Of a stretch of 64,000 nt of DNA, positions 3,946 through 61,566 are shown piece after piece (within the stretch, counting starts at the first letter, position 1; each line of letters starts with the position of its first letter). Source of the stretch: a virus. Its lineage: Duplodnaviria; Caudoviricetes. Location: the IMG/VR virus record IMGVR_UViG_3300042894_007079, positions 785-64,784 of that record; one strand, 5' to 3'. The position numbers were made by a program, and so were the translations under genes. Below the pieces are notes generated by a model. That model had not been told where the DNA came from and did not search any database. It saw only the letters and a list, made by a program, of their open reading frames with translations.

Positions 3946-3961
3946 ATTTAATATATAATTT

Positions 3962-10662: not shown

Positions 10663-10744
10663 AATAAACTTATTGATTACAATTCCATATAACATGAAAC
10701 GCTAAGCATTATGGAAAAATCCACAAAAAATAAAATGCTAATTT

Positions 10745-11110
10745 ATGTATCTTAATAACAAAGAATTATATGTTGAAATAATCGTATCAAAAGCACAAGG
10801 AAAACTTACAAGAAACGCCGAAAAAATGCTAGAGCTTCTAGCAAAGAAAACAATCAAAAAAATGAGATATTGGTCTAATGATGATAAATTAGACTGTTAC
10901 CAATCAGGACTATTAGATATGTTCCAAAACTGGTATAACTTCAATGAAGATAAATCAGTAAATGCATTCGCTTACTTTACAGAGGTATTTAAAAGAGGAA
11001 TTGCTAAAGGCTTCAACGAACTTTATAAGAAAAAAGGAGATAACGAAAACCTAATTAAATTGCTATCAATTGAAGGTAGTAACGATGGTCAAGGACTTCA
11101 CTCAATCTAA
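10745..11110 (+). CDS. gp55: Late-transcription sigma factor, T4 gp55-like
   Basis: YLNNKEL N-terminus and NFNEDKSVNAFAYFT region-2 motif typical of gp55. Confidence 0.75.
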   Translation: MYLNNKELYVEIIVSKAQGKLTRNAEKMLELLAKKTIKKMRYWSNDDKLDCYQSGLLDMFQNWYNFNEDKSVNAFAYFTEVFKRGIAKGFNELYKKKGDNENLIKLLSIEGSNDGQGLHSI

Positions 11111-11130
11111 AAAATTAAATAATAGATATA

Positions 11131-11164
11131 AAAAAACCCACTCAATTGAGTGGGTTTCTTTTTA
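11131..11164. terminator. Bidirectional terminator
   Basis: A-run, ACCCACTC-AATT-GAGTGGGT hairpin, T-run, between convergent genes. Confidence 0.85.
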
Positions 11165-17612: not shown

Positions 17613-18037
17613 GCTGCTTTTTTTGGTAGTTCAAAATAAAAATCAATTACTTGTCCTACTTTTATATGAGTATTTTGATAAAGTTTTAAATCTATATTGC
17701 TATCAAGTAAGTTTCTTAGAATATTTCCAAATGTTGTATTTAAAGCAGTTATCGAGACTTTTAAGTCAATGACATTATTTTCTAATATTATAAACGTTAG
17801 TTTGTTTATGACAGCGCACGCACCACTTGTATTCATTATATCAGTTGATATATTTACATAGAAAACACTTTGTGAATTAGGAATGTCAACTTCAAATTCT
17901 ATCTTTTTATCTGATTCTAATAACTGATTTAGATTTATTTCTCGTTTGTATTTTTTCCAATTTGAAAATCTAGATAATAAATTCTCATAATCACTTATTT
18001 TATTATTATTTAACTCTACATTAAATTCACTTTTCAT
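17609..18037 (-). CDS. Hypothetical protein
   Basis: Coupled to rnr; carries REINLNQLL motif. Confidence 0.5.
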   Translation of the reverse strand: MKSEFNVELNNNKISDYENLLSRFSNWKKYKREINLNQLLESDKKIEFEVDIPNSQSVFYVNISTDIMNTSGACAVINKLTFIILENNVIDLKVSITALNTTFGNILRNLLDSNIDLKLYQNTHIKVGQVIDFYFELPKKAA

Positions 18038-19914
18038 TAGAATAAACTAAAATCAATTTGTTTCTTTTCTAAATCAACTCCCATAACTACAACTTTGATT
18101 GGGTCTCCCAATCTTATTTTATTACCCATTTCATCTGATATCGTGTAATTATCCAGGTCTAGTTTTACTTTACCAATTGTTGAATATCTAACTAATCCCT
18201 CGCATTTAGATTCTGTTAATTCTACATACATTCCCCAATCTGTAACTCCTGATACAATTCCATCATAAACATGTCCAATTTTGTCTTGTAAGTATTCTGC
18301 TTGTTTATATTTTATAGAGTCTCTTTGAGCTTTTGAAGACAGTAATTCTCTATTAGAACACCATTTTGCTTGGTCTTCTATTTTACCGGGATTTCCTTGT
18401 TTTCCTTTATTTAGGTAATCAAAAAGAATTCTGTGTGTTATTAAGTCGGGATATCTTCTAATTGGTGAAGTAAAGTGTGAGTAGTGACTGAAACCTAATC
18501 CGTAATGACCGATGTTCTTAATCGTGTAAGTTGCTTTAGACATACATCTTGTAACAAGTGTTTGTATCATATTTTCTTCCGGTGTTCCTTTGATGTCCTT
18601 AAGAAGTTGATTTATTGATGATTTTAGTTCGTCTCCTTCTCCCTGAAGTGAGACACTGTGTCCGAAGTTTTGGCAAACATTTTCTAATTGAATTAATTTT
18701 TCTTCGTTTGGTGTGTCATGAACTCGATATACATTAAACCACTGGTTGTCTGAAAGAATTTTAGCAACTGATTTATTCGCCAGTAGCATAAATTCTTCAA
18801 TTAGTTTGTTAGCCTCTTTTTGTTCTTTAAAGTAAACACCAATTGGTTTCTTGTTGTCTTCTGCTAATTTGAATCTTACTTCAATTCCACCCATCTCAAT
18901 AGAACCATCTTTAATTCTTTTCTTTCTGATTTTTTGAGCAAGTCCATTTAGAATTCTAATTTCATTGTAAAAGTCACCGTCAAATCCTTCGATTATTTCT
19001 TGAGCTTCTTCATATGTAAATCTTCTATCAGAGTGAATTACTGTTTTACCGTGCCATTCTTTTAATATTTTACCATCTTTGTCAATGTTAAATATTACTG
19101 AAAATGCCAATCTATCTTCATGTGGTTTTAAAGAACATATTCCGTTACTCAATCTTTCCGGTAACATAGCAACACATCTATCGACGAGATATACAGATGT
19201 AGCTCTTTTAAAAGCTTCTTCATCTAATTTTGTACCTGGTTTAACATAATGCCCGACATCGGCAATATGAACACCAACTTCTATATTATTTTCATTGATT
19301 ACTTGAATTGAAATGGCATCATCAAAATCTCTAGCATCTACTGGGTCGATTGTTATAGTAGTAATATTTCTAATATCTTTTCTTTTAATAATTTCATTTT
19401 CAAAGATAACTTCTGGTACTAATTCAGATTCATTTAGTACATCTTGTGGAAAATCAACTGGTAGGTTGTACTCGTACATAATTGAATTCATTTCGGCGTT
19501 GTTATCACCTGCGTCTCCGAGAATTTTAATTATTTTTCCTTGTGGTGATTTTGAGTCTTCCCATTTTGTTAGCTCGACTATAACTTTTTGACCATCTTTT
19601 GCGACTAAACCGCCTTTGATGTAAAAATCTACAGATAGTTTATCACTATCTGAAATTACAAATGTGGATTTTTTTCCAATTTGTACTCTACCGACAAATT
19701 CTTTTCTAAATCTTGAGATTACCTCTACTACTTTTCCTTCTAACTTCTTTTCACCTTTGAATATTTCTACAGTTACTGTATCTAAATGTAAAGATGTGTT
19801 GGTATTTTTTCGATGTATAAAGATTGATTTGTCTTCTATTGTTAAACTAGCATTCCCGTTATTTGAGAATTCTATTTGACCTTTATATCGGTCACCTTCT
19901 ATTAATTGTATCAT
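18037..19914 (-). CDS. rnr: Ribonuclease R (RNB family)
   Basis: TIDPVDARDFDDA, VHIADV, IEEFMLLAN, HYGL..YSHFTSPIRRYPDL, C-terminal S1 domain. Confidence 0.95.
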   Translation of the reverse strand: MIQLIEGDRYKGQIEFSNNGNASLTIEDKSIFIHRKNTNTSLHLDTVTVEIFKGEKKLEGKVVEVISRFRKEFVGRVQIGKKSTFVISDSDKLSVDFYIKGGLVAKDGQKVIVELTKWEDSKSPQGKIIKILGDAGDNNAEMNSIMYEYNLPVDFPQDVLNESELVPEVIFENEIIKRKDIRNITTITIDPVDARDFDDAISIQVINENNIEVGVHIADVGHYVKPGTKLDEEAFKRATSVYLVDRCVAMLPERLSNGICSLKPHEDRLAFSVIFNIDKDGKILKEWHGKTVIHSDRRFTYEEAQEIIEGFDGDFYNEIRILNGLAQKIRKKRIKDGSIEMGGIEVRFKLAEDNKKPIGVYFKEQKEANKLIEEFMLLANKSVAKILSDNQWFNVYRVHDTPNEEKLIQLENVCQNFGHSVSLQGEGDELKSSINQLLKDIKGTPEENMIQTLVTRCMSKATYTIKNIGHYGLGFSHYSHFTSPIRRYPDLITHRILFDYLNKGKQGNPGKIEDQAKWCSNRELLSSKAQRDSIKYKQAEYLQDKIGHVYDGIVSGVTDWGMYVELTESKCEGLVRYSTIGKVKLDLDNYTISDEMGNKIRLGDPIKVVVMGVDLEKKQIDFSLF

Positions 19915-24853: not shown

Positions 24854-24869
24854 ATTTAATATATAATCT

Positions 24870-43809: not shown

Positions 43810-43881
43810 ATTTAATTGATTCCAATTATATATTAAAAACTAACTATTCTTTACTTAATATATATAGAAAATAAAAGTCGT

Positions 43882-44340: not shown

Positions 44341-44656
44341 AAAATTTAAAGAATTTATTAATGAAGAAGTTTCTGGTACTGAAATTCCACAAAAGAATAA
44401 AGGTAGTTATTTTGGACCGGCTTATGGAGATACCGTAAGTCCAAACACAATCAATGCTTTTCACACAAGTATGACGAGTGTTGGTGGTGTTGATAATAAA
44501 AACTCTAAAAACGATTTAACTTCTGATATTTTTACAATAGACGACTATAAAGAAATGAGAATAGAATATCTTAAAGCCGGTGGAAAAGAATCAGATTTAA
44601 GTGGTGATAAAGAGGTAGATATTCCTATAATGTCTGAATTTTTAAACAATGATTAA
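44333..44656 (+). CDS. Protein with CTS-like leader
   Basis: MIKKFKEFINEE. Confidence 0.6.
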   Translation: MIKKFKEFINEEVSGTEIPQKNKGSYFGPAYGDTVSPNTINAFHTSMTSVGGVDNKNSKNDLTSDIFTIDDYKEMRIEYLKAGGKESDLSGDKEVDIPIMSEFLNND

Positions 44657-44696
44657 GGAATTGAATATATAAATTGATAAAAACAGAAATCAAATT

Positions 44697-46028
44697 ATGG
44701 CAAAATTAGTAACTATTAATGGTTTAAATGACAATGAGCTTTTATCAGGTATTTTATCTGATGAAATTATTGTATATGAAGACATACAAGGAAGTAAAAT
44801 ATGGGTTAATTGGAACGGCAAAGAGTTCACTATTAAACCAAAGTCACTTTCTAATGAACCAATCAATTTAATTGATTTGGCAATGCAGAATTATTACAAT
44901 CCTGTAATAAATTATTTTAATTCTTTAGATGAAAGAGTAAAAGGACTACTTAATAAAAAATGGTCTTTTTGTTTTGAGTATTTCCCTGATAACCAACCAG
45001 CTAATATTGAATATGATAAAGTTCCAAAAAATCAACTTGTACTTACTTTTATCAATAAATCTGGTAAGTATGAATTTAATATTGATGAGTTAGATGAATA
45101 TGCTAGACTTTTAGATGTTGAGATGTTGCCTATAATATATCAGGGTAAATTGACTGAAACTATGAAAGAGGCTATAAAATACTTTATCAATACTTCGGAA
45201 AAAGATTTAGAGTATATTTTTGGTGAAAAATCATTTGCTTATTTCTTTTATAAAATTTTAAATCCAAGCATTAAAAATTCATTTTTGATGAACGGTGAAG
45301 AGTTTCAACATAATGTTGAAAAGTTAATCATAAGAACTTCTACTGATGATATGAGTTTTGAGTTATTAAATCCACTTTATTCAAGAATGAGTCAAGATAA
45401 CGATACTGATTTTGTTGAGATATACACATTAATATTGGTCAATTTTCTTAACTTCTGTCAATCTGTAAATATTAAACAGGTAAAACTAAAAGGTGAAAAA
45501 AAAGACGAGTGTTACATTTATTTAATTTGTAAACTTTATAATATTTATGTTGGTGAAGTAAAAGAAGATTTGTTAAATTTTGATTTTATTGTACCAGAAT
45601 TTTTTGATAAAGAAAAATTTAAAATTAATACTGAGTTGATTAGTAATAAATTAACAAAAGATTACATTGAAGACGATCCAAAATTAGAATATATTTTCAA
45701 AGTAATTTTAGGTTCTTTTAATAAAAAGAAAAAAAAACCTATTGGAATTTTTACTGAAAATACAGTAAAGTTATTTAATAAGTTTGTTGAAGAAATTGAC
45801 ATTCATATTAGTCAATATTTAAACAAAATGCATGAGATTGAATTAGGAAGAGCTGGTCTATTAGACTTTGGTGACTTCTTTGAAATACAATATGATACCG
45901 ATTCTGAGGGTAATGTTTATCCTGATGTCTATGATGAGATACAAAAAGGTTCTTCTGATAAAAAGAAAAAAGGTAAAGGTGGTAAAATGCCAATAACTCC
46001 AGAGGAAACTACTAAAAAAATTAGTTAA
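44697..46028 (+). CDS. RNA-ligase-fold-like protein, probably degenerate
   Basis: YEDIQGS (motif I-like, lacks Lys), FCFEYF, LPIIYQG. Confidence 0.45.
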   Translation: MAKLVTINGLNDNELLSGILSDEIIVYEDIQGSKIWVNWNGKEFTIKPKSLSNEPINLIDLAMQNYYNPVINYFNSLDERVKGLLNKKWSFCFEYFPDNQPANIEYDKVPKNQLVLTFINKSGKYEFNIDELDEYARLLDVEMLPIIYQGKLTETMKEAIKYFINTSEKDLEYIFGEKSFAYFFYKILNPSIKNSFLMNGEEFQHNVEKLIIRTSTDDMSFELLNPLYSRMSQDNDTDFVEIYTLILVNFLNFCQSVNIKQVKLKGEKKDECYIYLICKLYNIYVGEVKEDLLNFDFIVPEFFDKEKFKINTELISNKLTKDYIEDDPKLEYIFKVILGSFNKKKKKPIGIFTENTVKLFNKFVEEIDIHISQYLNKMHEIELGRAGLLDFGDFFEIQYDTDSEGNVYPDVYDEIQKGSSDKKKKGKGGKMPITPEETTKKIS

Positions 46029-46073
46029 AAAACACTTTTTTAATTTAATATATACTAAAAAATAAACAAAGGT

Positions 46074-46658
46074 ATGAAATATATCAAAACTTATGAAAAT
46101 TTTAATTATCAACCTGTAAACGAAGAACTATTTGGTTTGTGGGAAAAAATTAAAGGTATGTATTCCAAAGCTAAAGAAGTCGTAGACAAAATTGTTCAAA
46201 GTATGAGTCCTGAGCAACTACAAGATGCTGCAAATTATCTTTCTGATAAAGGATTAACTCCTGAGTTGGCAAAACAAGCCGCTGAGAAGTTGGGTGTTGA
46301 AAAAAATGAACCATCACCAGAAGTCGCTGAAGACATAGCTGAGATTGTTGAGGTTGAAACTTCAGAAAATTCTAAATATTTAAAAGAAGGTGTTGAAGAA
46401 ACTGTAAAATTTAGATTGATTAAATGGTTGGGTATGCCAGCTCTTACTACATTTTTTGCTTGGCTATACTCAATAGTAGGTAGAGCAGCGGCAGTTGGTT
46501 GGGCATCAGAGCCGAAATGGATTACAGATCTTCACGATGCACTTGGTGGATTTGGTGGTCCGCTATCGTTTATTTTAGTAGCAATTACTTTCATATTGTT
46601 TATTATTACAGTTATGAAAATGACAACTAAAGGGCCTGTTTTCACAAAAAAATTCTAA
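46074..46658 (+). CDS. CTS-leader protein with two C-terminal TM helices
   Basis: MKYIKTYENF..VNEE; late promoter at 46046-46054. Confidence 0.6.
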   Translation: MKYIKTYENFNYQPVNEELFGLWEKIKGMYSKAKEVVDKIVQSMSPEQLQDAANYLSDKGLTPELAKQAAEKLGVEKNEPSPEVAEDIAEIVEVETSENSKYLKEGVEETVKFRLIKWLGMPALTTFFAWLYSIVGRAAAVGWASEPKWITDLHDALGGFGGPLSFILVAITFILFIITVMKMTTKGPVFTKKF

Positions 46659-46673
46659 TATAATTTAATTAAC

Positions 46674-46707
46674 AAAAAAAAGTGATACGAAAGTATCACT
46701 TTTTTTG
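46674..46707. terminator. Bidirectional terminator
   Basis: A-run, GTGATAC-GAAA-GTATCAC hairpin, T-run. Confidence 0.85.
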
Positions 46708-47013
46708 TTTAAGATGATTTCTAATAGTAGAGATTAAAAAATCAAAAGATTTATTTTCTTGTTTATATTTTTCTTTTTCGATTAATTTTTTACTAAAAAA
46801 TAACCAGAAAATAAAATGACATACCAATCCTATAAATACATTGAATCCAAAAATATAGAATGAAAAAAGTGTGCTAAATAAAGATAATGAAAAATATCCT
46901 GCCTCATTATTTATTAATTTGAGTGCTGTCAAAATAAATATTTTTTTTCTATTTGAAAAATTAGACTTTTTTTCAAATCCTTCAATTTCTTTAAGTAGTT
47001 GTGTCTTATCCAT
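46696..47013 (-). CDS. Small membrane protein
   Basis: Central TM hairpin; TATATTTG element at 47031-47038. Confidence 0.5.
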   Translation of the reverse strand: MDKTQLLKEIEGFEKKSNFSNRKKIFILTALKLINNEAGYFSLSLFSTLFSFYIFGFNVFIGLVCHFIFWLFFSKKLIEKEKYKQENKSFDFLISTIRNHLKQKK

Positions 47014-47090
47014 TTTATTTATATATTTTACAAATATAACACAAAAATCTTAATTACAAAAACAAAATCTTAATTTTTTATAAAAATTGT

Positions 47091-47306
47091 ATGAGACAAA
47101 TTAATATTGAAATTCAATCGACCGAAGTTAAGTCTGTGATGAAGCCTATCAAAACAAGATGGTCTTATGAGATAATAACTGATTTAAATGATAAAAACGG
47201 TTTCTATGGAATTGATAATGAAACCGCTAAAGAATTAGCAATTGCGATTAGAAGAGAGATGCGCCTTAAATCAATCAAAAATATATTTTCTGAACAAAAA
47301 CCATAA
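47091..47306 (+). CDS. Hypothetical protein
   Basis: Short ORF; RREMRLKSI near the C-terminus. Confidence 0.45.
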   Translation: MRQINIEIQSTEVKSVMKPIKTRWSYEIITDLNDKNGFYGIDNETAKELAIAIRREMRLKSIKNIFSEQKP

Positions 47307-47329
47307 GATAGATTTCATATATAATCTAT

Positions 47330-48559
47330 ATGCAAATCAATAACAATCTTCAATCATATTATCAATCAAACATAAAACAAAAACTTACCAAAAAAAATAA
47401 ATCTTTACAATTTTTACCAAGTTGTTTAGAAGATATTTCTACTAAAAAGACAATCATTTATAAGTCTCAAAAGATTAAACCCGCATACTTAATAGATATA
47501 GTTCATAATCTACTATTAAAATATTATTTTAAAAAAGATAATAAATTCGCATTAAATGCCACTGTATTAAAGGATAGATATGGTCATCTTTATAAACTAT
47601 ATGTAGATTATCTAATTGAAAACAATGTTATACATATGATTTATAACTATAGAGCTGGAAAAAACTCTAGAATTTACGCACTTAATTCTTCTATATTTAA
47701 ACAAAAAATTAACAGAACAAGTAACTTTGATAAAACTTTACTTAAAAAGTATAAGAAAAAAATATTTGATACTTTAGACTTTGTTGATGAAAATGTTTCT
47801 ACAATCGGTCCCGAGATTAGAGAAAAACTAATATCAGATCTTTTTTCAGTTGATATTGATTTTGAAAGAAGTTTATTTTATTTAAATATGTTAAAGAAGT
47901 CTGATGTCGACATTTATAATAGAAATATCTACTCAGTTGAATCAATTAACGATAAACATATCTTTTATCATTTTGATGACTATGGTCGCTTACATACAAA
48001 TTTTACCATTTTAAAATCTTTCATAAGAAAAAACTGTTTAACTATTGATGGTGAAGAGACTTGTGAAATTGATATCAAAAATAGTCAACCACTTTTTCTT
48101 TGTAAATTAATTCAAGATACACAAACTGCTTGGGTCAATAAAGATGAGTTTAGATTTTTTAAACAGTTAGTTGTAAGTGGTAATTTTTATCAATATTTGA
48201 TGCAGGTTACCGGTGAAAAAGATAGAAAAGTAATAAAAGAAATGACATATAAAGTATTATTTGGACATAATAGATCAAACTCTAAAGTTGATATCATTTT
48301 TTGTTCCAATTTTCCAACGATACACAATTTTATAAAGTTATATAAAAAAGAGTTTGGAAGTCACAAAGTTTTGGCGCATGATTTACAGAGAGCTGAATCT
48401 AATTTGATTTACAATAAAATTATTAAAAAGATAATGTTGATTTTTCCAGATATAAAGATTGTGACTGTCCATGATAGTCTTATTTTTTCAAAAAAATGGA
48501 AAAATGAAATAGAACAAATTTTCAATAATGAGCTTGATTTAGAGTTGAATTTAAAGTAG
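47330..48559 (+). CDS. Compact family-A-like polymerase-fold protein
   Basis: GRLHT, motif A EIDIKNSQP, motif B R..IKEMTYKVLFG, LQRAES, motif C TVHDS. Confidence 0.65.
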   Translation: MQINNNLQSYYQSNIKQKLTKKNKSLQFLPSCLEDISTKKTIIYKSQKIKPAYLIDIVHNLLLKYYFKKDNKFALNATVLKDRYGHLYKLYVDYLIENNVIHMIYNYRAGKNSRIYALNSSIFKQKINRTSNFDKTLLKKYKKKIFDTLDFVDENVSTIGPEIREKLISDLFSVDIDFERSLFYLNMLKKSDVDIYNRNIYSVESINDKHIFYHFDDYGRLHTNFTILKSFIRKNCLTIDGEETCEIDIKNSQPLFLCKLIQDTQTAWVNKDEFRFFKQLVVSGNFYQYLMQVTGEKDRKVIKEMTYKVLFGHNRSNSKVDIIFCSNFPTIHNFIKLYKKEFGSHKVLAHDLQRAESNLIYNKIIKKIMLIFPDIKIVTVHDSLIFSKKWKNEIEQIFNNELDLELNLK

Positions 48560-48582: not shown

Positions 48583-49122
48583 GTGTTAAATTTAAGTAGT
48601 CCAGAATTGTCTTTTATTTTATTATCCGCTTCTAGTTTAGAGGATATGATGTCTATATTATGGGCAAAAAACTATCAGATACTACCAATACAGGGTTATT
48701 ACCAAGAAAAATATGAAAACGCAGCATTAGCTTTTTCGGCAATTGATAATGATGAATTAAGAAAAGATTTGATTTTTTTACTTAATCATTTTCATCAAGA
48801 TTGTGGTATAATCAAATATAAAGGAGAATCTGGATCAAAGAAAGTTTTTAAAGATGGTTCAGAAAAGCCTTTAGGTATAGTTCTTTATAATACAGATGCT
48901 GATAATATATCATATCTATATAATGGTACTTCTTTTTCTTTTGTTGAACAAGTTAGATATTGGAAGCCAACTTGTAAAGAGGATTTAAAAGCCGGTATGA
49001 TTGTGGAATATTTTAGTAATAAAAATTGGACAAAAAAAGAAATTAAAAACTTAGACATCGAATTTGAAGATATGTATAAGTTATTAATTAAGTATGATAA
49101 GATTAGAGTGGTATCTATCTAA
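48583..49122 (+). CDS. Hypothetical protein
   Basis: GTG start 5 nt after TAATATATA (48570-48578). Confidence 0.55.
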   Translation: MLNLSSPELSFILLSASSLEDMMSILWAKNYQILPIQGYYQEKYENAALAFSAIDNDELRKDLIFLLNHFHQDCGIIKYKGESGSKKVFKDGSEKPLGIVLYNTDADNISYLYNGTSFSFVEQVRYWKPTCKEDLKAGMIVEYFSNKNWTKKEIKNLDIEFEDMYKLLIKYDKIRVVSI

Positions 49123-49125
49123 ACT

Positions 49126-49746
49126 TTATATTTTTCTAAAAATAAAAATATCGTCTATTTCAATTTTTTCTAAACCTTCAACTTTTTCTAAAACAGACTT
49201 TAGACCAAGACCACTTTCGCGGTTTTCTATAATTAGTGAACCTGGTTTAATTTCATTTTTAAGTTTAGTATAATAATTGAATAAATCATTTTCTTCAATA
49301 TATGGTGAATAAGAATATACTATATCGTAATTAGAAAAGTCACTTGTGGCAATGTCCGCTTCTATTAGATTTAATTCGCCATTCCAAAATTCAATTAGAT
49401 TTTCTTTTAAATATTCAATATATTTAGTTTGTTTTTCTATACCATAAAAGGTGAATTTTATACCATTAATATCTTTTGATTGTAAATATAAATCAAAAAG
49501 AGCCGAGCCTAATCCAATACCCGCGTCACAAATTTTAGTTTCTGATTTTAATAGATTTTTTTCGTTTAATCTTTGTAGTAAAAAAATGTTTTGTTCTAAA
49601 TTGCTCATTATATAATGCCACTCATTTGATGAAAGTTGATTCATTTTAACAGTCAGTTCCGTCATATTATCAAATGCTGTCCAAAGAGCATTTGAAGTTT
49701 TGACATATCTGACTAACAGTGGATGTGGTTCGATTGTTTCTGTCAT
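49126..49746 (-). CDS. Class I SAM-dependent methyltransferase
   Basis: ICDAGIGLG, YGIE, EADI, YDIVYSYSPY. Confidence 0.75.
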   Translation of the reverse strand: MTETIEPHPLLVRYVKTSNALWTAFDNMTELTVKMNQLSSNEWHYIMSNLEQNIFLLQRLNEKNLLKSETKICDAGIGLGSALFDLYLQSKDINGIKFTFYGIEKQTKYIEYLKENLIEFWNGELNLIEADIATSDFSNYDIVYSYSPYIEENDLFNYYTKLKNEIKPGSLIIENRESGLGLKSVLEKVEGLEKIEIDDIFIFRKI

Positions 49747-49751
49747 TTTTT

Positions 49752-50498
49752 TTAAATTATTTTAAACCAACAATATTGTTTATTCCAGTTTGGTGTTTGA
49801 TTAAAGAAGTAATTTCCGGTTGTTGAATTATCTATAAATATTAATCCTGGTTGATCTATATTATTAGCTCTACAAACAATTATTTTATCATCATCTACTA
49901 AGTCACTATAGTGAGCTATTAATCCGTTGATATTATTTGAACCAAATTGATTGATTGCATTGTTGATATATGGTATTAATTTTTTACCGTAAAGTATAGA
50001 TTTTGCAGGTCCTATTCTGCCATCCATCGCAATTATATTAGAACACATTAGTATCTTTGAGATTATCTTTCTATAATCTGTTTCGTATTCATCTATCAAT
50101 TTATAGTCTAAGCTTTGATTTCTATGTTGAAGACTTTTCGGGCTTTGTGTATTTTGATTTAAAAAGTCAACTAATTGAATCCAAACTTTTTCATAACTCT
50201 CAAATCTCTGAGCAGTCATATTAATTTGCATTATTTTTGGACTTATAACACCCATTTGAGATGTTGAGTTATATTGTTGAGAAACATCAGTAACTTGATT
50301 TTCTCTAAATATGTTTAACTCTTCAACTTTGTCATCTAATATAGCATCAACAACTAGTTCTCGATTTTGTTGCTTCACTTTTCTCTGATATTCTTCATCG
50401 TCCGATGATATCATATCAACATACATTAATTGAGCCTTTGGTAAGCTCATTTGTTTATCTGAGTAATTACAGATATTTTTTAAATCAGAAGGTGTCAT
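49752..50498 (-). CDS. Truncated major-capsid-protein paralog
   Basis: RKIISKILMCSNIIAMDGRIGPA and RANNIDQPGLIFI align with MCP RKLITKIAHASNYIATEGRVGPA and RKNNPDQPGIIFV. Confidence 0.7.
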   Translation of the reverse strand: MTPSDLKNICNYSDKQMSLPKAQLMYVDMISSDDEEYQRKVKQQNRELVVDAILDDKVEELNIFRENQVTDVSQQYNSTSQMGVISPKIMQINMTAQRFESYEKVWIQLVDFLNQNTQSPKSLQHRNQSLDYKLIDEYETDYRKIISKILMCSNIIAMDGRIGPAKSILYGKKLIPYINNAINQFGSNNINGLIAHYSDLVDDDKIIVCRANNIDQPGLIFIDNSTTGNYFFNQTPNWNKQYCWFKII

Positions 50499-51246
50499 AT
50501 TTGTTCTTCAAACCGATTTTTGGAGAGCTCATTGCAATAGACCTTTGAATTTCTTCTCTGGATAGTTGACTTGATTTTTGTAATATTTGTAAAGTTTTTT
50601 GATATTGTTTTTGGTCTAAAGTCTCTCTACTATGGTATAAATGATAGCATTTAGCTTTCAATTCGGACCATTTCAAAAAGTGTTGTACTTTTATAGTTTG
50701 GAAATCATCTTCTCCACCCCAGCCTACAAAATCCTCGGACCAACCACCAATTTTTAAGGCAGATTCTTTTCTGAAAATAGCTATACCACCAGAAATGTTT
50801 ATTTTTTGGTTATCGGTTTCGCCTCTACCAGGTCGTTCTATTTTAATTACTTGTTCTAAAGGAAGTCCGCTTTCTTGTGGTGTTAAGTCTAAAACTGAAG
50901 AGTATGGGCTGACCATTTCAAATTCTGACATGGCTTTAAGACCGTTGATAAAATCTTCAGGATTCATAATTAAATCAGAATCTCCAAATACTACAATTTG
51001 TGATTTAGCATACTTGAGACCTACATTAAAGGCCCAAGAACGATTGTACGGCATATTTGATTTTACAAAAATATGTTCGCATCGTAAATTAAGATGTGAT
51101 ATCTTAGTGTGTTTATCTTGTTCAACTAAAATTATTTGAACGTTTGTGAAGCCGTTTACCCAGTCTAATGTTCTTCTTAGATTGTTAAGTCTATCTGCTC
51201 GGTGTCTATAACCTATAATATAGGTAAAAGATGGTTGATAAGTCAT
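50485..51246 (-). CDS. Glycosyltransferase (GT2/GT7 galactosyltransferase-like)
   Basis: YNRSWAFNVG, FGDSD, GGWSEDFVGWGGEDD. Confidence 0.85.
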   Translation of the reverse strand: MTYQPSFTYIIGYRHRADRLNNLRRTLDWVNGFTNVQIILVEQDKHTKISHLNLRCEHIFVKSNMPYNRSWAFNVGLKYAKSQIVVFGDSDLIMNPEDFINGLKAMSEFEMVSPYSSVLDLTPQESGLPLEQVIKIERPGRGETDNQKINISGGIAIFRKESALKIGGWSEDFVGWGGEDDFQTIKVQHFLKWSELKAKCYHLYHSRETLDQKQYQKTLQILQKSSQLSREEIQRSIAMSSPKIGLKNKYDTF

Positions 51247-51297
51247 TTAAAAATAATTATTTTTATTTTATATCTTTAAATGAGTGTTTTGTTTATA

Positions 51298-52326
51298 TTA
51301 GAAATTTTTAAACTTCTTGATTTTACCAAATTGATAGCTTTCGTACTTTTCAGAGTATTTTCTTTTTAATTCAGCTAATTCTGCTGCTGCCTCATCATCT
51401 GATATTTCATCTGTAATTTCGGGTAAACTTAAATCAACATTGGGTCCATCATTACTTGGTGGTGTTGGTGGAAGTAGTTTTGATTGTTTATATCTTTCCA
51501 TTTCTTCACCATAAGCTCTTTTGAAATCTTCAATTTCGCTTTTAATATAGTCGCTAATTATTTTTACAAGTTTTTGAAATAGGCTTGGTATTTTTTTAAC
51601 CATTTCTAAAAGTTTAGTAAAAGGCCAAGCACAAACTAATAAAATAGCTGATGCGATTTGTCCTGCTTTTTTAAGACCAGTGCTAAGTGCATTATAAACA
51701 ATTTCTCCAAGTCTTTTAAAAGCTTCAATTGTTGAATTCTTTGCTTTTTCAGCATATTCTTTAATTTTTGCCCAACTTTCAGATAACCACTCTGATAATC
51801 TACCACCAAGTGCTAAAAGTTTATCTTTTGTAGTTTTAACTAAACTTTTTACATTTTCTACAAGTTTATGCCACATATCTACGCACCATTCTGAAAACTG
51901 TGCGATTTTTCCAGAAAACTTTTGCCAAGCTGATTTGATACCTTCAATGGCTGAGTAGTAAGCATTTGTAACATACTCTACAAATTTTTTGAAATTGGTT
52001 GTACACCAATTGACTGCTGTTTTGAAACCTTCTTTTACACCATTTGCTATTTTCATAGCTAAATCTTTAATCCAGTTCCACGCCTGTGTAGCGTATTTTT
52101 TTCCTGTATTGTACCAACTTTTTGCTCTGTCTGGTAAGCTCTTAAAAAAATTTGTTGCTTTACCAAAAGCAGTACCCAACCAAGATCCAAGTCCTTCGTT
52201 AAGACCATCTTCAAAACCTTTGATTAAAGCTTGTCTTTCTACAGATGATATTGATTCGTTTACTGAATAAACTTTTTCAAATATCAAGTCTATTTCTTTT
52301 TCAAATTTTCTAACTTCGAATTGCAT
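51298..52326 (-). CDS. Amphipathic helical Trp-periodic protein (virion/ejection-like)
   Basis: LNEGLGSWLG, periodic W/F helices, late promoter at 52347-52355. Confidence 0.5.
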   Translation of the reverse strand: MQFEVRKFEKEIDLIFEKVYSVNESISSVERQALIKGFEDGLNEGLGSWLGTAFGKATNFFKSLPDRAKSWYNTGKKYATQAWNWIKDLAMKIANGVKEGFKTAVNWCTTNFKKFVEYVTNAYYSAIEGIKSAWQKFSGKIAQFSEWCVDMWHKLVENVKSLVKTTKDKLLALGGRLSEWLSESWAKIKEYAEKAKNSTIEAFKRLGEIVYNALSTGLKKAGQIASAILLVCAWPFTKLLEMVKKIPSLFQKLVKIISDYIKSEIEDFKRAYGEEMERYKQSKLLPPTPPSNDGPNVDLSLPEITDEISDDEAAAELAELKRKYSEKYESYQFGKIKKFKNF

Positions 52327-52402
52327 GTTTATAGTGTAATTTTTCTTATATATTAAATTTGATAATTAAATATTTTACATCTTTTTGTATCAAAATTTAT
52401 TT

Positions 52403-53002
52403 TTATATAAAATAAATTTTCCACTTTTCATCTAAGATATTAAAATCAAATTCATATTTAAACATATCGAATTCATCATTCCAATAGTTATTGATACTGT
52501 GATTCCATAAAAGACATTTTTCCAATGGGTTAACACCTCCATATTTTCTTTTAAACCAACTATATGGATTATTTGGTATATTACATAATATATTATTAAA
52601 TGTTGACTTTTTTAGTGGATATATTTCATCTTCTGTTAATTCTGATGATATTCCATATTCTATTTCATTATTTCTTTTAAGGAAGAAGATATCTATTGAT
52701 TCGTCTTCTATACTTGCTCTATATAATTTATCATCTACTGGTGATTCTGTTATCTTTATATTCATATTGATATTCAAAACTGTTTCTAGATATTCCTGTG
52801 GAATGCATATATCTATATCATCATCCCATGGTATAAATCCCTTATGTCTAAGACATCCTATCAATGTGCCGTATCCTAACCAGTGGTCTATTTTATTTTT
52901 ATCCAATTCATCTATTAACTCATTAAGTAATTTTAATAGTTTTTTTTGTTTTTTTACAAATTTTGCATTTATTATTTTTTCCAAAATCTCGTTAGGATTC
53001 AT
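52403..53002 (-). CDS. licD: LicD-family phosphotransferase
   Basis: GTLIGCLRHKGFIPWDDDIDI, IDIF, IYPLK, IPNNP. Confidence 0.88.
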   Translation of the reverse strand: MNPNEILEKIINAKFVKKQKKLLKLLNELIDELDKNKIDHWLGYGTLIGCLRHKGFIPWDDDIDICIPQEYLETVLNINMNIKITESPVDDKLYRASIEDESIDIFFLKRNNEIEYGISSELTEDEIYPLKKSTFNNILCNIPNNPYSWFKRKYGGVNPLEKCLLWNHSINNYWNDEFDMFKYEFDFNILDEKWKIYFI

Positions 53003-56000
53003 AATATTTTTTTAATTTCTGTAGAACTTATATTTTCTGTTCTTGGAAGATATACAACATCACATGGTAGATTGTCAAATTTACCTTTCCAGTCATCACC
53101 CATAACAAATGTGTTTACTTTGTATTTTCTTATATCATCTACCTTTTGTTCCCAACTTTCTTCAGGTATTACTAAATCTACTTGTTTAATAGATTCTATC
53201 CATTCTTTTCTTTGTTCATAGTTAAATCTACTTATTTTATTTTTTAATAAGTTAAAACTATCGGTTGATATACCTACTATTAAATAATCTCCCATCTTTT
53301 TGGCTCTTTTTATGATTTCCATATGTCCAAAGTGAAAGGTGTCAAAAGTTCCATAAGTTATGATTACTTTTTTATTTAGATTTTCAATCTCCTCTAAATA
53401 ACTTGGTATATTATTTAATTGTAAGTCTTGAATTATTTGAAAATCCTTTCTATCTCTTTCGTCTATAAGACCTTCTCTGTGTTCAAATTCATCTATATCT
53501 AATCTTTTAATTTCGTAGAAACATGGATCTTCAAATCTTAGTGCAATCGAAGAGTTTGCGTATTTTCTATCTACATACTCACATCTAATTGCGTCTTCCC
53601 ATTTTACTCCGTTAGACAGAGAGAATCCTCTATATTCATCATAGAATGAATCCTTATTAATATACTTTTTTTCATCTTTAATGAATACAGTTTCTCCAGT
53701 AAACCACATTGAGAATTTATCATCTCTTGTTCTCAATGAATAAGATGTTATTAGTTTGTTTAGATTTTCTCTATTTGCTATAAAGTCAGCATCCCATTTA
53801 AATATGGTTTTTCTTGTAGATTTACTCAGACAGAAGTTATAATATTGAGCTATACTATTACCCAATATATTTATATTATTTTGATAGTTAGGTCCTGGTT
53901 TTGGTATTTCTCTATCATATCTGAAAACTTTTAAGTTATCATAAATTTTACTTAACTCTAATGCTTTTTCATATGTTCCGTCTGTAGATAAATGGTCTAC
54001 AAAAATAATTTCATCTGCTATATCACTAATACTATCTATACAATCTTGTATATTTAATATTTCATTTCTAGCTCTAATAACAAAGCTTACTCCTTCTTTG
54101 TATCCTCCATAAAGGAAGTCTAAATAATATTTAGCATTTTCAGAGCTTCTATGATACTTTATCCTTTCTATTATTTTATTCTTATCTATTGTATTTTTAT
54201 TTAGAATAGATTTTATTTCATTGACAAACATATCTATCTCAAAATCTTTAAACCTGGAGAATATATAATCATCACTTGAAGGATCAAATGATTTTCTTTG
54301 TTTCATTTCTATTACAGACCCACATCCTGATAGCACCAAAGGTATCTCACCATGTGAAGGATATACACAGTGAATACCTATTGACATTTGCTCAAGTAGT
54401 GATATTGGTAATCCCTCACTTGGAGAAGTATTTATAGCTATATTAAAGCACGACGCGTATTTTATAACATCTTCGTTATTTACATGTCCTGTTATAATTA
54501 CTCTATCTTGTAGGTTGTATTTTTTTATTTCATCTAATACCTCATTTTTATAGGGTTTTGACTCTTCTTTTTCCGGTGCGTCTCCAACAATAAGTAGTTT
54601 AGTGTTATTATCTAATTTGCTCAAAATTTTAATTGCATCTAGAATATTTTTATCAGGAGAAATTCTAGTGATCATTCCAATAATAAATTCGTTATTAAGT
54701 ATTCTAAATTTTCTCTTTAGATTTCTATTATCAAAGTTTTTATAGGAGTCTTGGATTTTATAAAATTCTACATAATTTGGAACTGTTGATATTCTTGTAT
54801 TACATACACCCTTTTTATTTAATTCATTTCTAATTTTGTCATGAATCACAATATATTTGTCTGTTATAATATCATGTTTATAGACTTCATTTGTTACCCA
54901 TTCTATATCAGAGTGCGCTATGGTATAATATTTAAAATTTTTATTTTCTTTTACTTTATGTATGTATTCAGAAATTCCGAAGTAGTTGCAATTATAAACT
55001 ATATCAACATCATTCGTTAATGATTCCAAAACTTCATATACTTTTGATTTATCTATTTCATTTAACTTTGAGTGGTATAGATCGACATCTAATAGTTTAG
55101 TTTTTTCAAAAAACATTCCTTTTCCTGCTGAAATTACAACTACATTGTATCCAAGTTCTTTACAGGCTTTGATGTGTTGATATGATACATATTCAGCGCC
55201 GCCTGTATCGTTTAAGTATATTAGAAATAGAATACTTTTTTTACTGGTCTTGGTCGTTGATTTTTTTACTAACTCTATATGATTTGATTTTATTAGTTTT
55301 TCCAGAGAGTTTGGTGATACTACATCATCAATATTGAAATTGAACGACTCTAAATTCCATTTCATTAATTTTGAATATTCATCCATTGATTTGCTTTGTC
55401 TTATGTCCGATTGAGAGACATCTGAAATTACTATATTTGGATAAATAACAAAACTCTGATTATTTTTTAATTGATATTCGGAAAGAAGATTGTCTATTGA
55501 TTTTCTTTTTGTTTCAAATAGTTCAAGTAAATCATCATAAATGTTTGAATTTATAGCATAAGCAAATGTTCCTAATGTATTTGAGCATTTATAAAAACCA
55601 TTATTAACTTTTACTCCTGTCCAATTAAATTGAGATGCGCCTAAATAAAGTAGTTCCCAGCTTAATTTATTTATTTGAGAAATTCTTTCGTTAAATTCAT
55701 TTGATAAAATCACATCATCCTCAAAAATAAGTATTCTTTTATACTTGGCTGACTTTGCTTCTTTTATGATTTCTATATGAGACATAAGGCAACCAAGTGC
55801 ATACTTATTTTCAATTAAACCTAATTTACTTGAATCAACTTCGGATATTTTTCTATTTGATATTTCGTTGAATTCATCGTCTGTTATGTCATTGCCATCA
55901 ATTCCTAAAAATCTATCTACATTTATATTAAGCTCCTTAAATTGTGTATTTGTTTTTTGCCATTTTTCACTATTTCTTTCCAGATTTAAACAGTAAATTT

Positions 56001-57192
56001 TATCAAAATATGAGTTTATATCAAATTTATTTTGTCCGATTGATTCAAATAATCTTTGAAATTCAGCATCTTCAATAAATCTATCAGTCTTTCTACCATC
56101 CCAATTAGTGTAACTTTTCCCTAAATGAATTATATGGTTTTTAATAGTTTGTTTTTGTGTAAATTTATCTCTAAATAACAAATCTGAAAATGCAGCATTC
56201 TCTGATGTTTCTGGATAGCTAATTGCCTTTGAGTAGTGAAACAGTTGAAAAAATCCTAATCCTCTATCTGATTCGTTTTTTATATGTTTTTTTAGAGAGT
56301 TTACATCTGTCTCCCATTTATATAAGTCATCGTAAGTTTCACACATCCATCTATCTGAAGTATAAAGTGTTTCTGTGTCTAAGTATTCTGTATTTATTCT
56401 GTCCTTTACGATAATATCAGCGTCTATAAGTAAAATGAATCCTGGATCTTTTATTGAATTTATAGCTAAGTTTATGGCTTTTCCTTTATTAAATTTGGCT
56501 CCTTCGTCATACATTATATCTGTTGTGATATAATTAACTTTAAATTTTTCACAAATCATTTGGCACATTTTATCTTCATTACTGGTGACAACAGTAATAT
56601 TATCAAAAGTTTCAATATTCCTTGTGAGTGTCGGTAAAAGAAAGTCATTATAGTTTACAGAGACTATTATTACATTTAGTTTTTTAAATACGTCTAAATT
56701 TTTAGATTTTACTAAATCACCTTTTCTTCTAATATTTTCTAGTTTTAATTCTTTTTCAATCGGATTATTTTTTTTATGAATAGTTCCAAAGTCAATTGTG
56801 GATATTTTAGGATTTTTAAAATGTTCATCAATAACCAAATCTTTACTAATTTTAGTATCTTTATTAATAATAATAAAATCTTTTGTCTTGTAGATAGATG
56901 GTTCTGTCAATAAAAACCTTAAATCTTCATTGAAACCAATTAGTGATTTTTTTGACCAAATTATTTTACTTTGTGATGTGTATTTTTTAGAAATTTCTAA
57001 TAATTGATATTCGTCATATTTTTTTACAAAGTATTTTATTTTTGGATGTTTAGGTAGGTCTTTATTATCACCATCAATGAAGACAAATATTTCAGATATG
57101 TATCCATTATTTGAATTATGGATTAAACAATTTATATGTTCCTGCTTATAACTTAGAAAATCACCAAATGAAATTTTGTTTATTAATAACAT
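52999..57192 (-). CDS. Multidomain glycosyltransferase (GT2 + GT25 + GT4 + GT2) fused to TagD-like cytidylyltransferase
   Basis: IIVSVNY..IDADI; YCLNL..GCLMSH..IFEDD; GGAE..SEGLPISLLE; SFVIRARNE..WDAD; ITYGTFD.FHFGH..RTENISST. Confidence 0.85.
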   Translation of the reverse strand: MLLINKISFGDFLSYKQEHINCLIHNSNNGYISEIFVFIDGDNKDLPKHPKIKYFVKKYDEYQLLEISKKYTSQSKIIWSKKSLIGFNEDLRFLLTEPSIYKTKDFIIINKDTKISKDLVIDEHFKNPKISTIDFGTIHKKNNPIEKELKLENIRRKGDLVKSKNLDVFKKLNVIIVSVNYNDFLLPTLTRNIETFDNITVVTSNEDKMCQMICEKFKVNYITTDIMYDEGAKFNKGKAINLAINSIKDPGFILLIDADIIVKDRINTEYLDTETLYTSDRWMCETYDDLYKWETDVNSLKKHIKNESDRGLGFFQLFHYSKAISYPETSENAAFSDLLFRDKFTQKQTIKNHIIHLGKSYTNWDGRKTDRFIEDAEFQRLFESIGQNKFDINSYFDKIYCLNLERNSEKWQKTNTQFKELNINVDRFLGIDGNDITDDEFNEISNRKISEVDSSKLGLIENKYALGCLMSHIEIIKEAKSAKYKRILIFEDDVILSNEFNERISQINKLSWELLYLGASQFNWTGVKVNNGFYKCSNTLGTFAYAINSNIYDDLLELFETKRKSIDNLLSEYQLKNNQSFVIYPNIVISDVSQSDIRQSKSMDEYSKLMKWNLESFNFNIDDVVSPNSLEKLIKSNHIELVKKSTTKTSKKSILFLIYLNDTGGAEYVSYQHIKACKELGYNVVVISAGKGMFFEKTKLLDVDLYHSKLNEIDKSKVYEVLESLTNDVDIVYNCNYFGISEYIHKVKENKNFKYYTIAHSDIEWVTNEVYKHDIITDKYIVIHDKIRNELNKKGVCNTRISTVPNYVEFYKIQDSYKNFDNRNLKRKFRILNNEFIIGMITRISPDKNILDAIKILSKLDNNTKLLIVGDAPEKEESKPYKNEVLDEIKKYNLQDRVIITGHVNNEDVIKYASCFNIAINTSPSEGLPISLLEQMSIGIHCVYPSHGEIPLVLSGCGSVIEMKQRKSFDPSSDDYIFSRFKDFEIDMFVNEIKSILNKNTIDKNKIIERIKYHRSSENAKYYLDFLYGGYKEGVSFVIRARNEILNIQDCIDSISDIADEIIFVDHLSTDGTYEKALELSKIYDNLKVFRYDREIPKPGPNYQNNINILGNSIAQYYNFCLSKSTRKTIFKWDADFIANRENLNKLITSYSLRTRDDKFSMWFTGETVFIKDEKKYINKDSFYDEYRGFSLSNGVKWEDAIRCEYVDRKYANSSIALRFEDPCFYEIKRLDIDEFEHREGLIDERDRKDFQIIQDLQLNNIPSYLEEIENLNKKVIITYGTFDTFHFGHMEIIKRAKKMGDYLIVGISTDSFNLLKNKISRFNYEQRKEWIESIKQVDLVIPEESWEQKVDDIRKYKVNTFVMGDDWKGKFDNLPCDVVYLPRTENISSTEIKKIL

Positions 57193-60741: not shown

Positions 60742-61566
60742 ATGCCTGAACTAGCGGAATTAAAAATCATGGCTGATTATATTAATCAGAATGTAAAGGA
60801 TAAAACCTTCAAAAAAATATATCACGTTGAAAAGGGTAATAATGCTATTGACTCTAATCTAATTGAAAACTTCAAAGTTGAATCTGTTTCTAATGGTAAA
60901 GAGTTAATATTAAGAGCCTATCATGATGATGCCGAACTTAAAATCTCAATATTTATGGGAATGTCTGGTAATTGGTTATTCACACCGACTGAAACTTGGT
61001 CTGATAGAAAGTTTACTAGATTAAGACTGGATACTACTGATGGTAACTCACTACTTCTTTATGGTCTTTATATGGGTCCTAAATATCGAGTAGGTGGTTT
61101 TACTGGTGTTAAAAGAGGCTTTGATCCAACTAAAGAATTTGATAACTTCAAAAAAGAAGTTATCTCTAATTTAGATAAAAAAGTATTTGACAAGCCTATT
61201 TGTGAGGCTTTATTAGACCAAAAATACTTTAATGGTATTGGTAACTATCTCAGAAGTACCATTTTATACTATCTTGATGTAAATCCATTTGAAGAAGCCA
61301 GAAAAATAATTAAATCATATCCACAAATTTTAGATATGTGTAAAGACATTCCACTAAAAGCTTATAGTCTCAATGGTGGTCAGTTACAAGATTGGAAAAA
61401 TCCTTTTGATACTGATTATTTTGATTTTCAAGAATGGGTCTTTTATCAAAAAGGTGTCTATTGTAAAGATAAAACCGGAAGAACATTCTGGTTTAGTGAA
61501 AAATGGATCGATAAGTGTCCATATGATGTTAATCAAAAAAAATTATCTATAGTTTATGAAAAATAA
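60742..61566 (+). CDS. nei: Fpg/Nei DNA glycosylase, NEIL1-like
   Basis: MPELAE, GMSG, H2TH ICEALLDQKYFNGIGNYLR, zincless finger DKTGRTFWF. Confidence 0.85.
   Translation: MPELAELKIMADYINQNVKDKTFKKIYHVEKGNNAIDSNLIENFKVESVSNGKELILRAYHDDAELKISIFMGMSGNWLFTPTETWSDRKFTRLRLDTTDGNSLLLYGLYMGPKYRVGGFTGVKRGFDPTKEFDNFKKEVISNLDKKVFDKPICEALLDQKYFNGIGNYLRSTILYYLDVNPFEEARKIIKSYPQILDMCKDIPLKAYSLNGGQLQDWKNPFDTDYFDFQEWVFYQKGVYCKDKTGRTFWFSEKWIDKCPYDVNQKKLSIVYEK

Follow-up and report, generated by a model that had tools for sequence, protein, structure and literature searches.

A phage polymerase with a winged-helix head, from a separate branch of the compact PolA-like enzymes that phages and mobile elements carry without an exonuclease

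Compact relatives of the family-A DNA polymerases (PolA) have been described from several kinds of mobile DNA. The TV-Pols, found in viruses and mobile elements, are PolA-like enzymes of minimal build that have no nuclease; they are linked to D5-like helicases or recombinases and were predicted to be primase-polymerases (PMC2579912; Iyer, Abhiman & Aravind, 2008). CcPol-MP, as presented in the available text of its preprint, is an A-family polymerase that primes DNA de novo when paired with an oligonucleotide/oligosaccharide-binding (OB)-fold protein (P. A. Rice, bioRxiv 10.1101/2022.12.02.518924). The available text of Yutin et al. (2024, Virol J 21:200; PMC11348598) describes divPolA2, a phage protein of ~430 amino acids that has an active palm, lacks an exonuclease and starts with a domain whose fold is unknown. 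Its gene neighborhoods are variable, its phages also have a family-B polymerase (PolB), and the authors propose that it is a repair DNA polymerase or an RNA polymerase (RNAP); the prototype is AUR84708 of Vibrio phage 1.063.O, barbaviruses also figure in the account, and the family was grown by PSI-BLAST. Here we describe a phage protein of 409 amino acids, consisting of a winged helix and a minimal family-A-like polymerase, whose gene lies at positions 47330–48559 (+ strand, ATG start, stop codon included) of a 64,000-nucleotide stretch of DNA. This stretch, referred to below as the window, is nearly all of the 64,784-bp IMG/VR viral fragment IMGVR_UViG_3300042894_007079.

An earlier note on the window, made from its letters, had picked out in this open reading frame (ORF) a set of strings which it read as polymerase motifs and as part of a winged helix. 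All of them are present, namely EIDIKNSQP (residues 246–254), YVDYLIENNVI (90–100), YRAGKNSRIY (107–116), the O-helix string R299-K-V-I-K303-E-M-T-Y307-K-V-L-F311-G312 and the motif C string V380-H-D-S383, and they are conserved in an alignment of 102 relatives with 28–58% identity to the query. R220, H222, D248, Y287, K303, E356, H381 and D382 are invariant in all 102 members. Residue conservation across the alignment indicates that the quoted motifs are not due to chance, and that the enzyme is under selection and catalytically intact.

The first of the core motifs along the + strand is a β-hairpin, D216-D-Y-G-R220-L-H222-T-N-F-T226 (47975–48007; strands 213–215 and 221–223), of the type DxxGR/GRxHT, whose Arg contacts the template, where D216 is kept in 101 and T226 in 100 of the relatives, next to the invariant R220 and H222. 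Motif A, E246-I-D248-I-K-N-S-Q253-P254 (48065–48091), contains the catalytic aspartate D248, and its Q253 is found in 99/102. Motif B, the O-helix R299-x3-K303-x3-Y307-x3-F311-G312 (48224–48265; helix 299–311), has limited substitutions around the invariant K303: R299 occurs in 65 members (Lys in 28), Y307 in 70 (Phe in 26) and F311 in 93 (Tyr in 8). The conserved sequence L352-Q353-x-x-E356-S357 (48383–48400) lies within a long helix (346–371), which may be equivalent to helix Q of Pol I; besides the invariant E356, Q353 and L352 are each present in 100 members and S357 in 93. Motif C is T379-V-H381-D382-S383 (48464–48478), with S383 in 96/102.

The AlphaFold2 model calculated from the alignment has a predicted local distance difference test score (pLDDT) of 95.9 and a predicted TM-score (pTM) of 0.91. 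The family-A-type polymerase core claimed in the earlier note is recovered by both structural searches made with this model. All 14 Foldseek matches in the PDB at E ≤ 1e-3 are family-A DNA polymerases (TMq 0.32–0.43), including the apicoplast polymerase, M. smegmatis Pol1 and Pol theta. VIA-align, an independent method run against 48,161 representative chains, places exclusively family-A DNA polymerases or T7-like RNAPs in its first 21 rows (Z 14.4–7.7). The best match is a Taq variant (8xjr; Z 14.4, root-mean-square deviation (rmsd) 4.2 Å, 265 residues). Other DNA polymerases are Aquifex Pol I (Z 14.0), apPol (13.4), Pol theta (13.1), Klenow (12.7) and T7 DNA polymerase (12.6), and the RNAPs are those of yeast mitochondria (13.7), T7 (11.3) and human mitochondria (10.0), and N4 RNAPII (8.2).

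The minimal polymerase core occupies residues ~136–409 (47735–48556, + strand), and is made up of a short helical thumb-like segment, palm and fingers; M. smegmatis Pol1 aligns with residues 138–409 of the model (Z 12.0) and N4 RNAPII with 177–409. Residues 136–210, in which helices 178–186 and 193–207 precede the β-hairpin, may represent the thumb. D248 ends a strand (242–248), and H381-D382 are at the turn of a further hairpin (378–380/383–387); this placement, together with the positions of the O-helix and of the β-hairpin motif, corresponds to the topology of a family-A palm and fingers. To judge from this secondary structure, the two aspartates would be placed as in an RNA recognition motif (RRM)-type, right-hand palm. 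The two-metal active site of family A is intact, and we regard it as close to certain that the protein has the fold of the family-A/T7-RNAP superfamily and is catalytically competent.

In front of the core is a basic, winged-helix-like domain (residues ~22–135; 47393–47734, + strand), in which helix 88–97 (YVDYLIENNV) is accompanied by wing strands 101–105 and 114–118. Rows 22–50 of the VIA-align output, 29 of the 50, fall on residues ~14–150, and most of these are winged-helix domains (ORC, Cdc6, RPA2, MCM8, MarR, TubR) with Z of 7.0–5.6. They include Drosophila ORC (7jgr_B; Z 7.0, rmsd 3.2, 86 residues), Cdc6/ORC2 (Z 6.2–6.4) and the winged helix of RPA2 (9f27; Z 6.5, rmsd 2.0, 62 residues). 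The proposal of a winged-helix N-terminus, matched in the model over residues ~30–131, consequently receives moderate support, all Z values being below 8. With 21 Lys and Arg against 8 Asp and Glu, its 114 residues are positively charged overall (net +13), and Y84, G85, Y88, L95 and Y116 are at least 90% conserved. The further claim that there is no exonuclease domain agrees with the modeling of residues ~22–135 as winged-helix-like, and no Pfam exonuclease family was matched.

We compared the protein with classical PolA using four bacterial Pol I genes and T7 gene 5 (gp5) as references. The sequence GRLHTNF in the hairpin resembles TGR[IL]HTS[FY], found in three of the four bacterial Pol I, and the O-helix pattern R...K...[FY]...[YF]G is common to the phage protein and all five references. 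An hhalign comparison of the 102-member alignment with a small PolA profile gave 47.6% (E 1.9e-4) over 110 columns, covering residues 230–341; in the PolA motif DYSQIELR, the catalytic Asp is the counterpart of D248 and the steric-gate Glu that of Q253, and R299, K303, Y307 and F311 fall on the O-helix R, K, F and Y. On this alignment, the phage protein has Gln at the steric gate where classical PolA has Glu. It also differs in having HDS at motif C, with Ser for the Glu that follows the Asp in all five references ([VIL]HDE), in the spacing of the hairpin Arg and the Asp of motif A (28 residues, compared with 51 in Pol I), and in a core that is ~130 residues shorter and is not preceded by an exonuclease domain. 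The Pfam model PF00476 (DNA_pol_A) matches neither the protein at E ≤ 10 nor the 102 members at E ≤ 0.1.

We note that the same model does detect (71 bits; DNA_pol_A E 1.2e-19) a second compact polymerase of 428 residues in LR756511.1, which lies directly after the family member (10732–12015, + strand, of the fetched locus), so that two mini PolA genes of different kinds stand in tandem in this genome. The 428-residue ORF was considered as a sequence bridge and was rejected, being unrelated to the 102-member alignment at profile level (E 0.099).

Among the compact polymerases, divPolA2 is the nearest described kin of the phage protein. The two are alike in size (430 and 409 residues), both consist of an N-terminal globular domain and a minimal PolA core with no exonuclease, and both are found in variable gene neighborhoods of phages with a regular polymerase (here a PolB, on the evidence of a match at the contig end and of two out of three relatives, as described below). 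The hhalign comparison with a 29-member divPolA2 alignment gave 65.8% (E 5.7e-5) over 174 columns, running in one register from the GR hairpin to motif C; the match to the PolA profile described above is of similar strength, and divPolA2 itself gives nothing against that profile (E 0.056). When the model was searched against BFVD with Foldseek, the first match was a 403-residue family member (43% identity, TM 0.93) and the second a 409-residue protein (23%, TM 0.75). Ranks 3–14 are twelve phage proteins of 400–450 residues, among them 'DNA polymerase [Rheinheimera phage vB_RspM_Barba31A]' (E 8.6e-7), and they come ahead of the classical PolAs, which start from E 5.1e-5. A model of AUR84708 (pLDDT 91.2) has the same PDB neighbors as that of the phage protein.

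The tie to divPolA2 is nevertheless distant, and the phage protein is not demonstrably inside that family. BLASTP to AUR84708 is not significant (E 0.058), and HMMER cross-searches leave the two families unlinked (best 10 bits). The motifs are DYKAFETS, LR.VGK and FDE in divPolA2, and DI.NSQP, R...K...Y...FG and HDS in the phage family. The N-terminal parts have no significant similarity by hhalign (E 0.015–0.03, probability 2–3%); the head of the divPolA2 prototype is modeled as two long helices followed by a β-sheet, with no winged-helix row among its top 50 in VIA-align. The phage family is also far larger and is found in huge T4-like phages, and the accessions of the megaphages described below are absent from the available part of the divPolA2 supplement (PMC11348598).

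TV-Pols have in common with the phage protein a minimal PolA/T7-RNAP-like core of 400–600 residues, the lack of a nuclease, and an occurrence beside a regular replication apparatus, and they share the synapomorphies of hairpin Arg, two palm Asp and fingers RxxxK. A bi-helical, coiled-coil thumb is the fourth synapomorphy of TV-Pols, for which helices 178–186 and 193–207 of the phage protein are candidates. TV-Pols have not been described as having a winged-helix head. Pfam searches of the window ORFs and of 57 neighboring ORFs from seven distant loci revealed none of the TV-Pol-type partners (D5-like helicase, TV-PolN, resolvase, integrase, transposase), and the profile of the 102-member alignment finds nothing at E ≤ 10 in the whole record of Ma-LMM01, a named TV-Pol carrier (PMC2579912). 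CcPol-MP and the other PolA-SSB primases, from SCC elements and mobile genetic elements of Firmicutes, resemble the phage protein in having an A-family core with reduced N-terminal domains, carried on mobile DNA. They differ in that the 3'-5' exonuclease fold, which the phage protein lacks, is retained in whole or in part, and in having a small OB-fold single-stranded DNA-binding protein (SSB) as partner within a helicase-recombinase operon, whereas the genes flanking the phage polymerase contain no helicase or recombinase Pfam domain. divPolA2 and CcPol-MP (PMC7581432) are closer comparators than TV-Pol. We conclude that, among the compact PolA-like polymerases without an exonuclease that occur in phages and mobile elements, the phage protein belongs to a distinct branch, marked by its winged-helix head.

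The winged-helix polymerase family is very large, and is almost wholly phage-borne. At E ≤ 1e-3, 1303 homologs were recovered by a word-indexed search; an exhaustive search found 2827 representatives (clusters at 50% identity) at the same threshold, and 1014 at E ≤ 1e-10. Among the best 150 representatives, 103 have at least 370 residues and the longest has 463. All 80 viral loci that were fetched contain an intact copy. Only six of 50,697 deposited phage records have a match, all of them uncultured megaphages of 595–735 kb; genomes of more than 634 kb are those assigned to the Bacteroidetes-infecting Mahaphage clade in the available text of the huge-phage paper (PMC7162821). Among related contigs in IMG/VR, lengths of up to 483 kb occur. 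A scan of 185,579 prokaryote species, at one genome each, which rests on a single peptide pattern and is not exhaustive, gave five cellular loci, all of them on contigs of metagenome-assembled genomes from unrelated phyla, and these are probably binned phage DNA. The 409-residue protein has no usable match in Pfam, PHROGs, NCBIfam or the PDB, the profile of its relatives has none in the PDB, and none of the 102 aligned members matches a relevant Pfam family. One 403-residue family member in BFVD is already named 'Putative DNA polymerase I [uncultured marine phage]'. Our literature searches, including the available text of PMC7162821, turned up no description of the winged-helix form.

The window has a GC content of about 30% and the gene content of a T4-like myovirus, with Gp20 portal, Gp23 capsid protein, prohead protease, the ATPase of a T4-type clamp loader, thymidylate synthase and a gp55-like late sigma factor (phrog_234). 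The earlier note had taken this phage to possess a PolB already, which stands only in part. A truncated ORF at the contig end (63397–63999) matches a PHROG 'DNA polymerase' (phrog_262, 5.3e-8), and PF00136 (PolB) has matches in two of three complete related megaphages; Pfam and PDB searches did not recognize the truncated ORF as PolB, and PF00136 has no match in the 64.8-kb record, for which the completeness estimated by CheckV is 28%. DnaB is present in all three of the complete megaphages. A Toprim_2 primase is above the cut-off in one of them (51 bits), with one further weak match, and Toprim_4 and archaeo-eukaryotic primase (AEP) domains were found in none of the three. It seems that the related megaphages have a standard replisome in which the primase is hard to see. 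In LR756501.1 and LR756504.1 the PF00136 matches lie in two far-apart ORFs of 409–572 residues, each matching a different part of the profile, and PolB in these genomes may be split or highly divergent.

The protein would on this evidence be an active, proofreading-free nucleotide polymerase, formed from a short thumb-like segment, an RRM palm and helical fingers (about 275 residues), with the basic winged-helix head of ~115 residues fused in front, where Pol I has its exonuclease domain. It would act as an auxiliary to the standard replisome, because the related complete megaphages have DnaB and, in two out of three, PolB of their own. It probably uses deoxynucleoside triphosphates (dNTPs). 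In T7 RNAP, selection of ribonucleoside triphosphates (rNTPs) depends on the hydroxyl of Tyr639, and RNAPs have Gly at the steric gate; the phage protein has Phe311 at the position of this Tyr, and Gln253, isosteric with the Glu of Pol I, at the predicted steric gate, and both lean towards dNTP. The winged helix may hold the enzyme at a particular DNA site or on a partner, where it would start or extend short DNA chains. Our preferred interpretation, put forward tentatively and with less than even confidence, is a site-targeted winged-helix DNA primase-polymerase, which is favored by the precedents of TV-Pol (proposed) and CcPol-MP (demonstrated), and by the difficulty of finding conventional primases in the related megaphages.

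Several observations weigh against this interpretation. The assignment of the steric gate hangs on one weak profile alignment, and in a comparison with T7 gp5 alone the alignment is weak (E 0.014) and the register of motif A is off by two residues. At motif C the protein has HDS, where all five PolA references have HDE, and in structural comparisons mitochondrial and T7 RNAPs (Z 13.7 and 11.3) score as high as DNA polymerases do. The niche for a primase is not clearly empty, given the Toprim primase in at least one relative. The matches to the head include a protein-binding winged helix (RPA2), so that targeting to DNA is not assured. The polymerase gene shows no consistent linkage to a helicase, SSB or recombinase, and no longer or fused forms were seen among 3516 candidates, which is weak evidence.

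Some of these observations would be better accounted for if the protein were a minimal single-chain DNA-dependent RNAP, a cut-down form of the T7 or N4 RNAPII type, which transcribed a subset of the phage genes or made RNA primers, and in which the winged helix was a promoter module. We consider this unlikely, though worth taking seriously. The palm and fingers core is common to T7-like RNAPs (Z 13.7–8.2), N4 RNAPII (PDB 6dt7) is similarly small at 404 residues, and HDS, retained in 96 of the 102 members, is presumably the form of motif C found in T7 RNAP. An RNAP function was also one of the possibilities raised for divPolA2 (available text of PMC11348598). The three related megaphages have no match to a T7-type RNAP that might otherwise fill this role, a search which is uninformative because control genomes are equally matchless. 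Set against this, the family relationship to RNAPs is not visible in sequence: hhalign of the 102-member alignment with T7 RNAP finds nothing (E 0.57), and PF00940 (RNA_pol) matches neither the protein nor any of the 102 members. The phage protein has no N-terminal RNAP domain and no promoter-specificity loop, and the modeled fingers are all-helical, with no strand able to form one. Phe replaces the Tyr at the end of the O-helix in 93/102 members, and the steric gate is Gln in 99/102, where RNAPs have Gly. Finally, the gp55-like late sigma factor encoded in the window implies use of the host RNAP. It is doubtful that, at 409 residues and less than half the size of T7 RNAP, the protein represents the smallest single-chain DNA-dependent RNAP known, with a winged-helix head in place of the promoter-recognition domains; if it were, it would provide huge phages with a private channel for transcription or RNA priming, and biotechnology with a minimal programmable RNAP scaffold.

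The genes around the polymerase bear on a further possibility, a primer-dependent DNA polymerase for repair, gap filling or translesion synthesis, which in this lineage perhaps works with an adjacent ligase-like protein. In close relatives (48–74% identity) there is a co-oriented block consisting of a 443-residue gene, a mini-gene of ~65 residues, the polymerase and a 179-residue gene. The 443-residue gene (44697–46028, + strand) is RNA-ligase-like by its Atlas features (PF09414 clusters, 0.91–0.94), and its product has no PDB profile or Pfam match. It is found in 74 of 80 close loci with a mean identity of 72%, making it more conserved than the polymerase, and in none of eight distant loci. 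The product has an invariant E28-D29-I-Q-G-S-K34 and a Lys-rich C-terminal tail. It has Asp at what we take to be the position of the motif-I lysine of Rnl2, and may derive from a ligase whose active site has changed. The 179-residue gene downstream (48583–49122, + strand) has no Pfam, NCBIfam, PHROG or PDB match, and is found in 80/80 close loci and 1/8 distant loci.

The mini-gene (47091–47306, + strand) encodes 71 residues and ends 23 nucleotides before the polymerase gene. It matches Pfam Gp23 (E 6.7e-4, profile positions 131–193), and on this sequence match it resembles a segment of the T4-type major capsid protein. It was detected in 19 of 80 loci by tblastn and in 27 by blastp, with orthologs of 57–73 residues in the same place. 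In the window, an insertion at 46074–47013 separates the 443-residue gene from the mini-gene; it contains a predicted membrane protein of 194 residues (+ strand) and an ORF of 105 residues (− strand), neither of which occurs in any of the 80 related loci. One lake metagenome contig jumps from 45989 to 47490 with 255 other letters in place.

In distant loci the neighboring genes are unrelated to these, and encode a ClpB-like ATPase, metallophosphoesterase, GT2, histidine kinase, ResIII helicase and aspartate carbamoyltransferase. No neighbor recurs across the distant loci beyond pairs of close relatives; a Metallophos gene is within about 4 kb in three of seven distant loci, which we read as residual synteny. 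A functional coupling to the 443- and 179-residue genes as a feature of the whole family was considered, and was rejected on their counts in the distant loci. Because the neighbors differ in distant loci, the synteny reflects relatedness of the phages rather than a functional module, and the linkage to the ligase-like gene follows the phage lineage and not the protein family.

This counts against a repair function, although the highly conserved RNA-ligase-like gene just upstream in most close loci speaks for one. Repair polymerases typically lack proofreading, the window encodes a Fpg/Nei-type glycosylase (60742–61566), and repair is among the options listed for divPolA2 in the available text of Yutin et al. 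(PMC11348598). A repair function leaves a winged helix that targets a sequence or partner unexplained, however, and the ligase-like protein, with its altered residue, may not ligate. We see a limited chance that repair is the role of the polymerase, and continue to prefer a targeted primase-polymerase.

Five nucleotides before the ATG of the polymerase gene there is a promoter-like motif, CATATATAAT (47316–47325, + strand), of a class that is shared with other genes. In 72 of 80 orthologous loci, or 55 of 62 upstream sequences when only distinct ones are counted, TATAA[AT] is no more than 25 nucleotides from the start. Within the window TATAA[AT] also precedes 16 of the 62 genes, compared with 5.9% of random 25-mers, in an A/T-rich motif of the type AATATATAAT that stands 3–15 nucleotides ahead of the ATG; examples are at 3950–3961, 24858–24869, 47316–47325 and 43813–43830 (− strand), and genes of the structural region are included. 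This gene-start motif may represent a class of phage promoter that gives near-leaderless mRNAs. Because motifs of the CATATATAAT type precede so many other genes, they point to an expression class and not to a cognate site for the polymerase. A 7-bp inverted repeat (47308–47314/47323–47329) was examined as an upstream site specific to the polymerase, and was discarded since it is not conserved in the 80 loci. Scans of the window for sigma-70-like promoters, terminators and T4 late promoters were at chance level. The only RNA run with any of the stretch is the lake metatranscriptome X20, which has contigs at 44600–44744 and 48883–49185 and none on the polymerase gene, although contigs cannot show absence. 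The location of the gene among late or structural-type genes, with a gene-start motif in common, and its variable context would fit some other role, such as template-independent tailing (terminal transferase) or mainly structural or regulatory DNA binding, but there is no direct evidence for this, and we think it very unlikely given that the hairpin Arg, the O-helix and both Asp are strictly conserved (102/102), which argues for templated catalysis.

Other features of the fragment were recorded in passing. The window encodes a glutamine-synthetase-like protein (11162–12223, − strand) and a full RNase II/R with RNB, CSD and S1 domains (18037–19914, − strand). A cluster of the surface-glycan type (50485–57192, − strand) contains a GT2/GT7 glycosyltransferase, a LicD-family protein and a polyprotein of 1397 residues, in which GT25, GT4/GT1, GT2 and cytidylyltransferase domains are joined. 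The sign of the GC skew of the fragment flips repeatedly with gene orientation, with no single flip that would place an origin. Lake-water metagenomes hold near-identical DNA, with at least half of the sampled words present in seven runs; among the metagenome matches listed, there are 20 runs from 14 studies.

Compact, proofreading-free family-A polymerases beside a normal replisome are a recurring feature of mobile DNA, as seen in TV-Pol, CcPol-MP and divPolA1/2. The winged-helix branch described here is typical of the largest known phages, and its recognizable targeting domain makes a role as site-specific initiator directly testable. Should the enzyme prime DNA, phage replication would gain a third class of primase in addition to DnaG and AEP; should it make RNA instead, it would represent a minimal RNAP. 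In both cases the smallest working family-A core would be defined.

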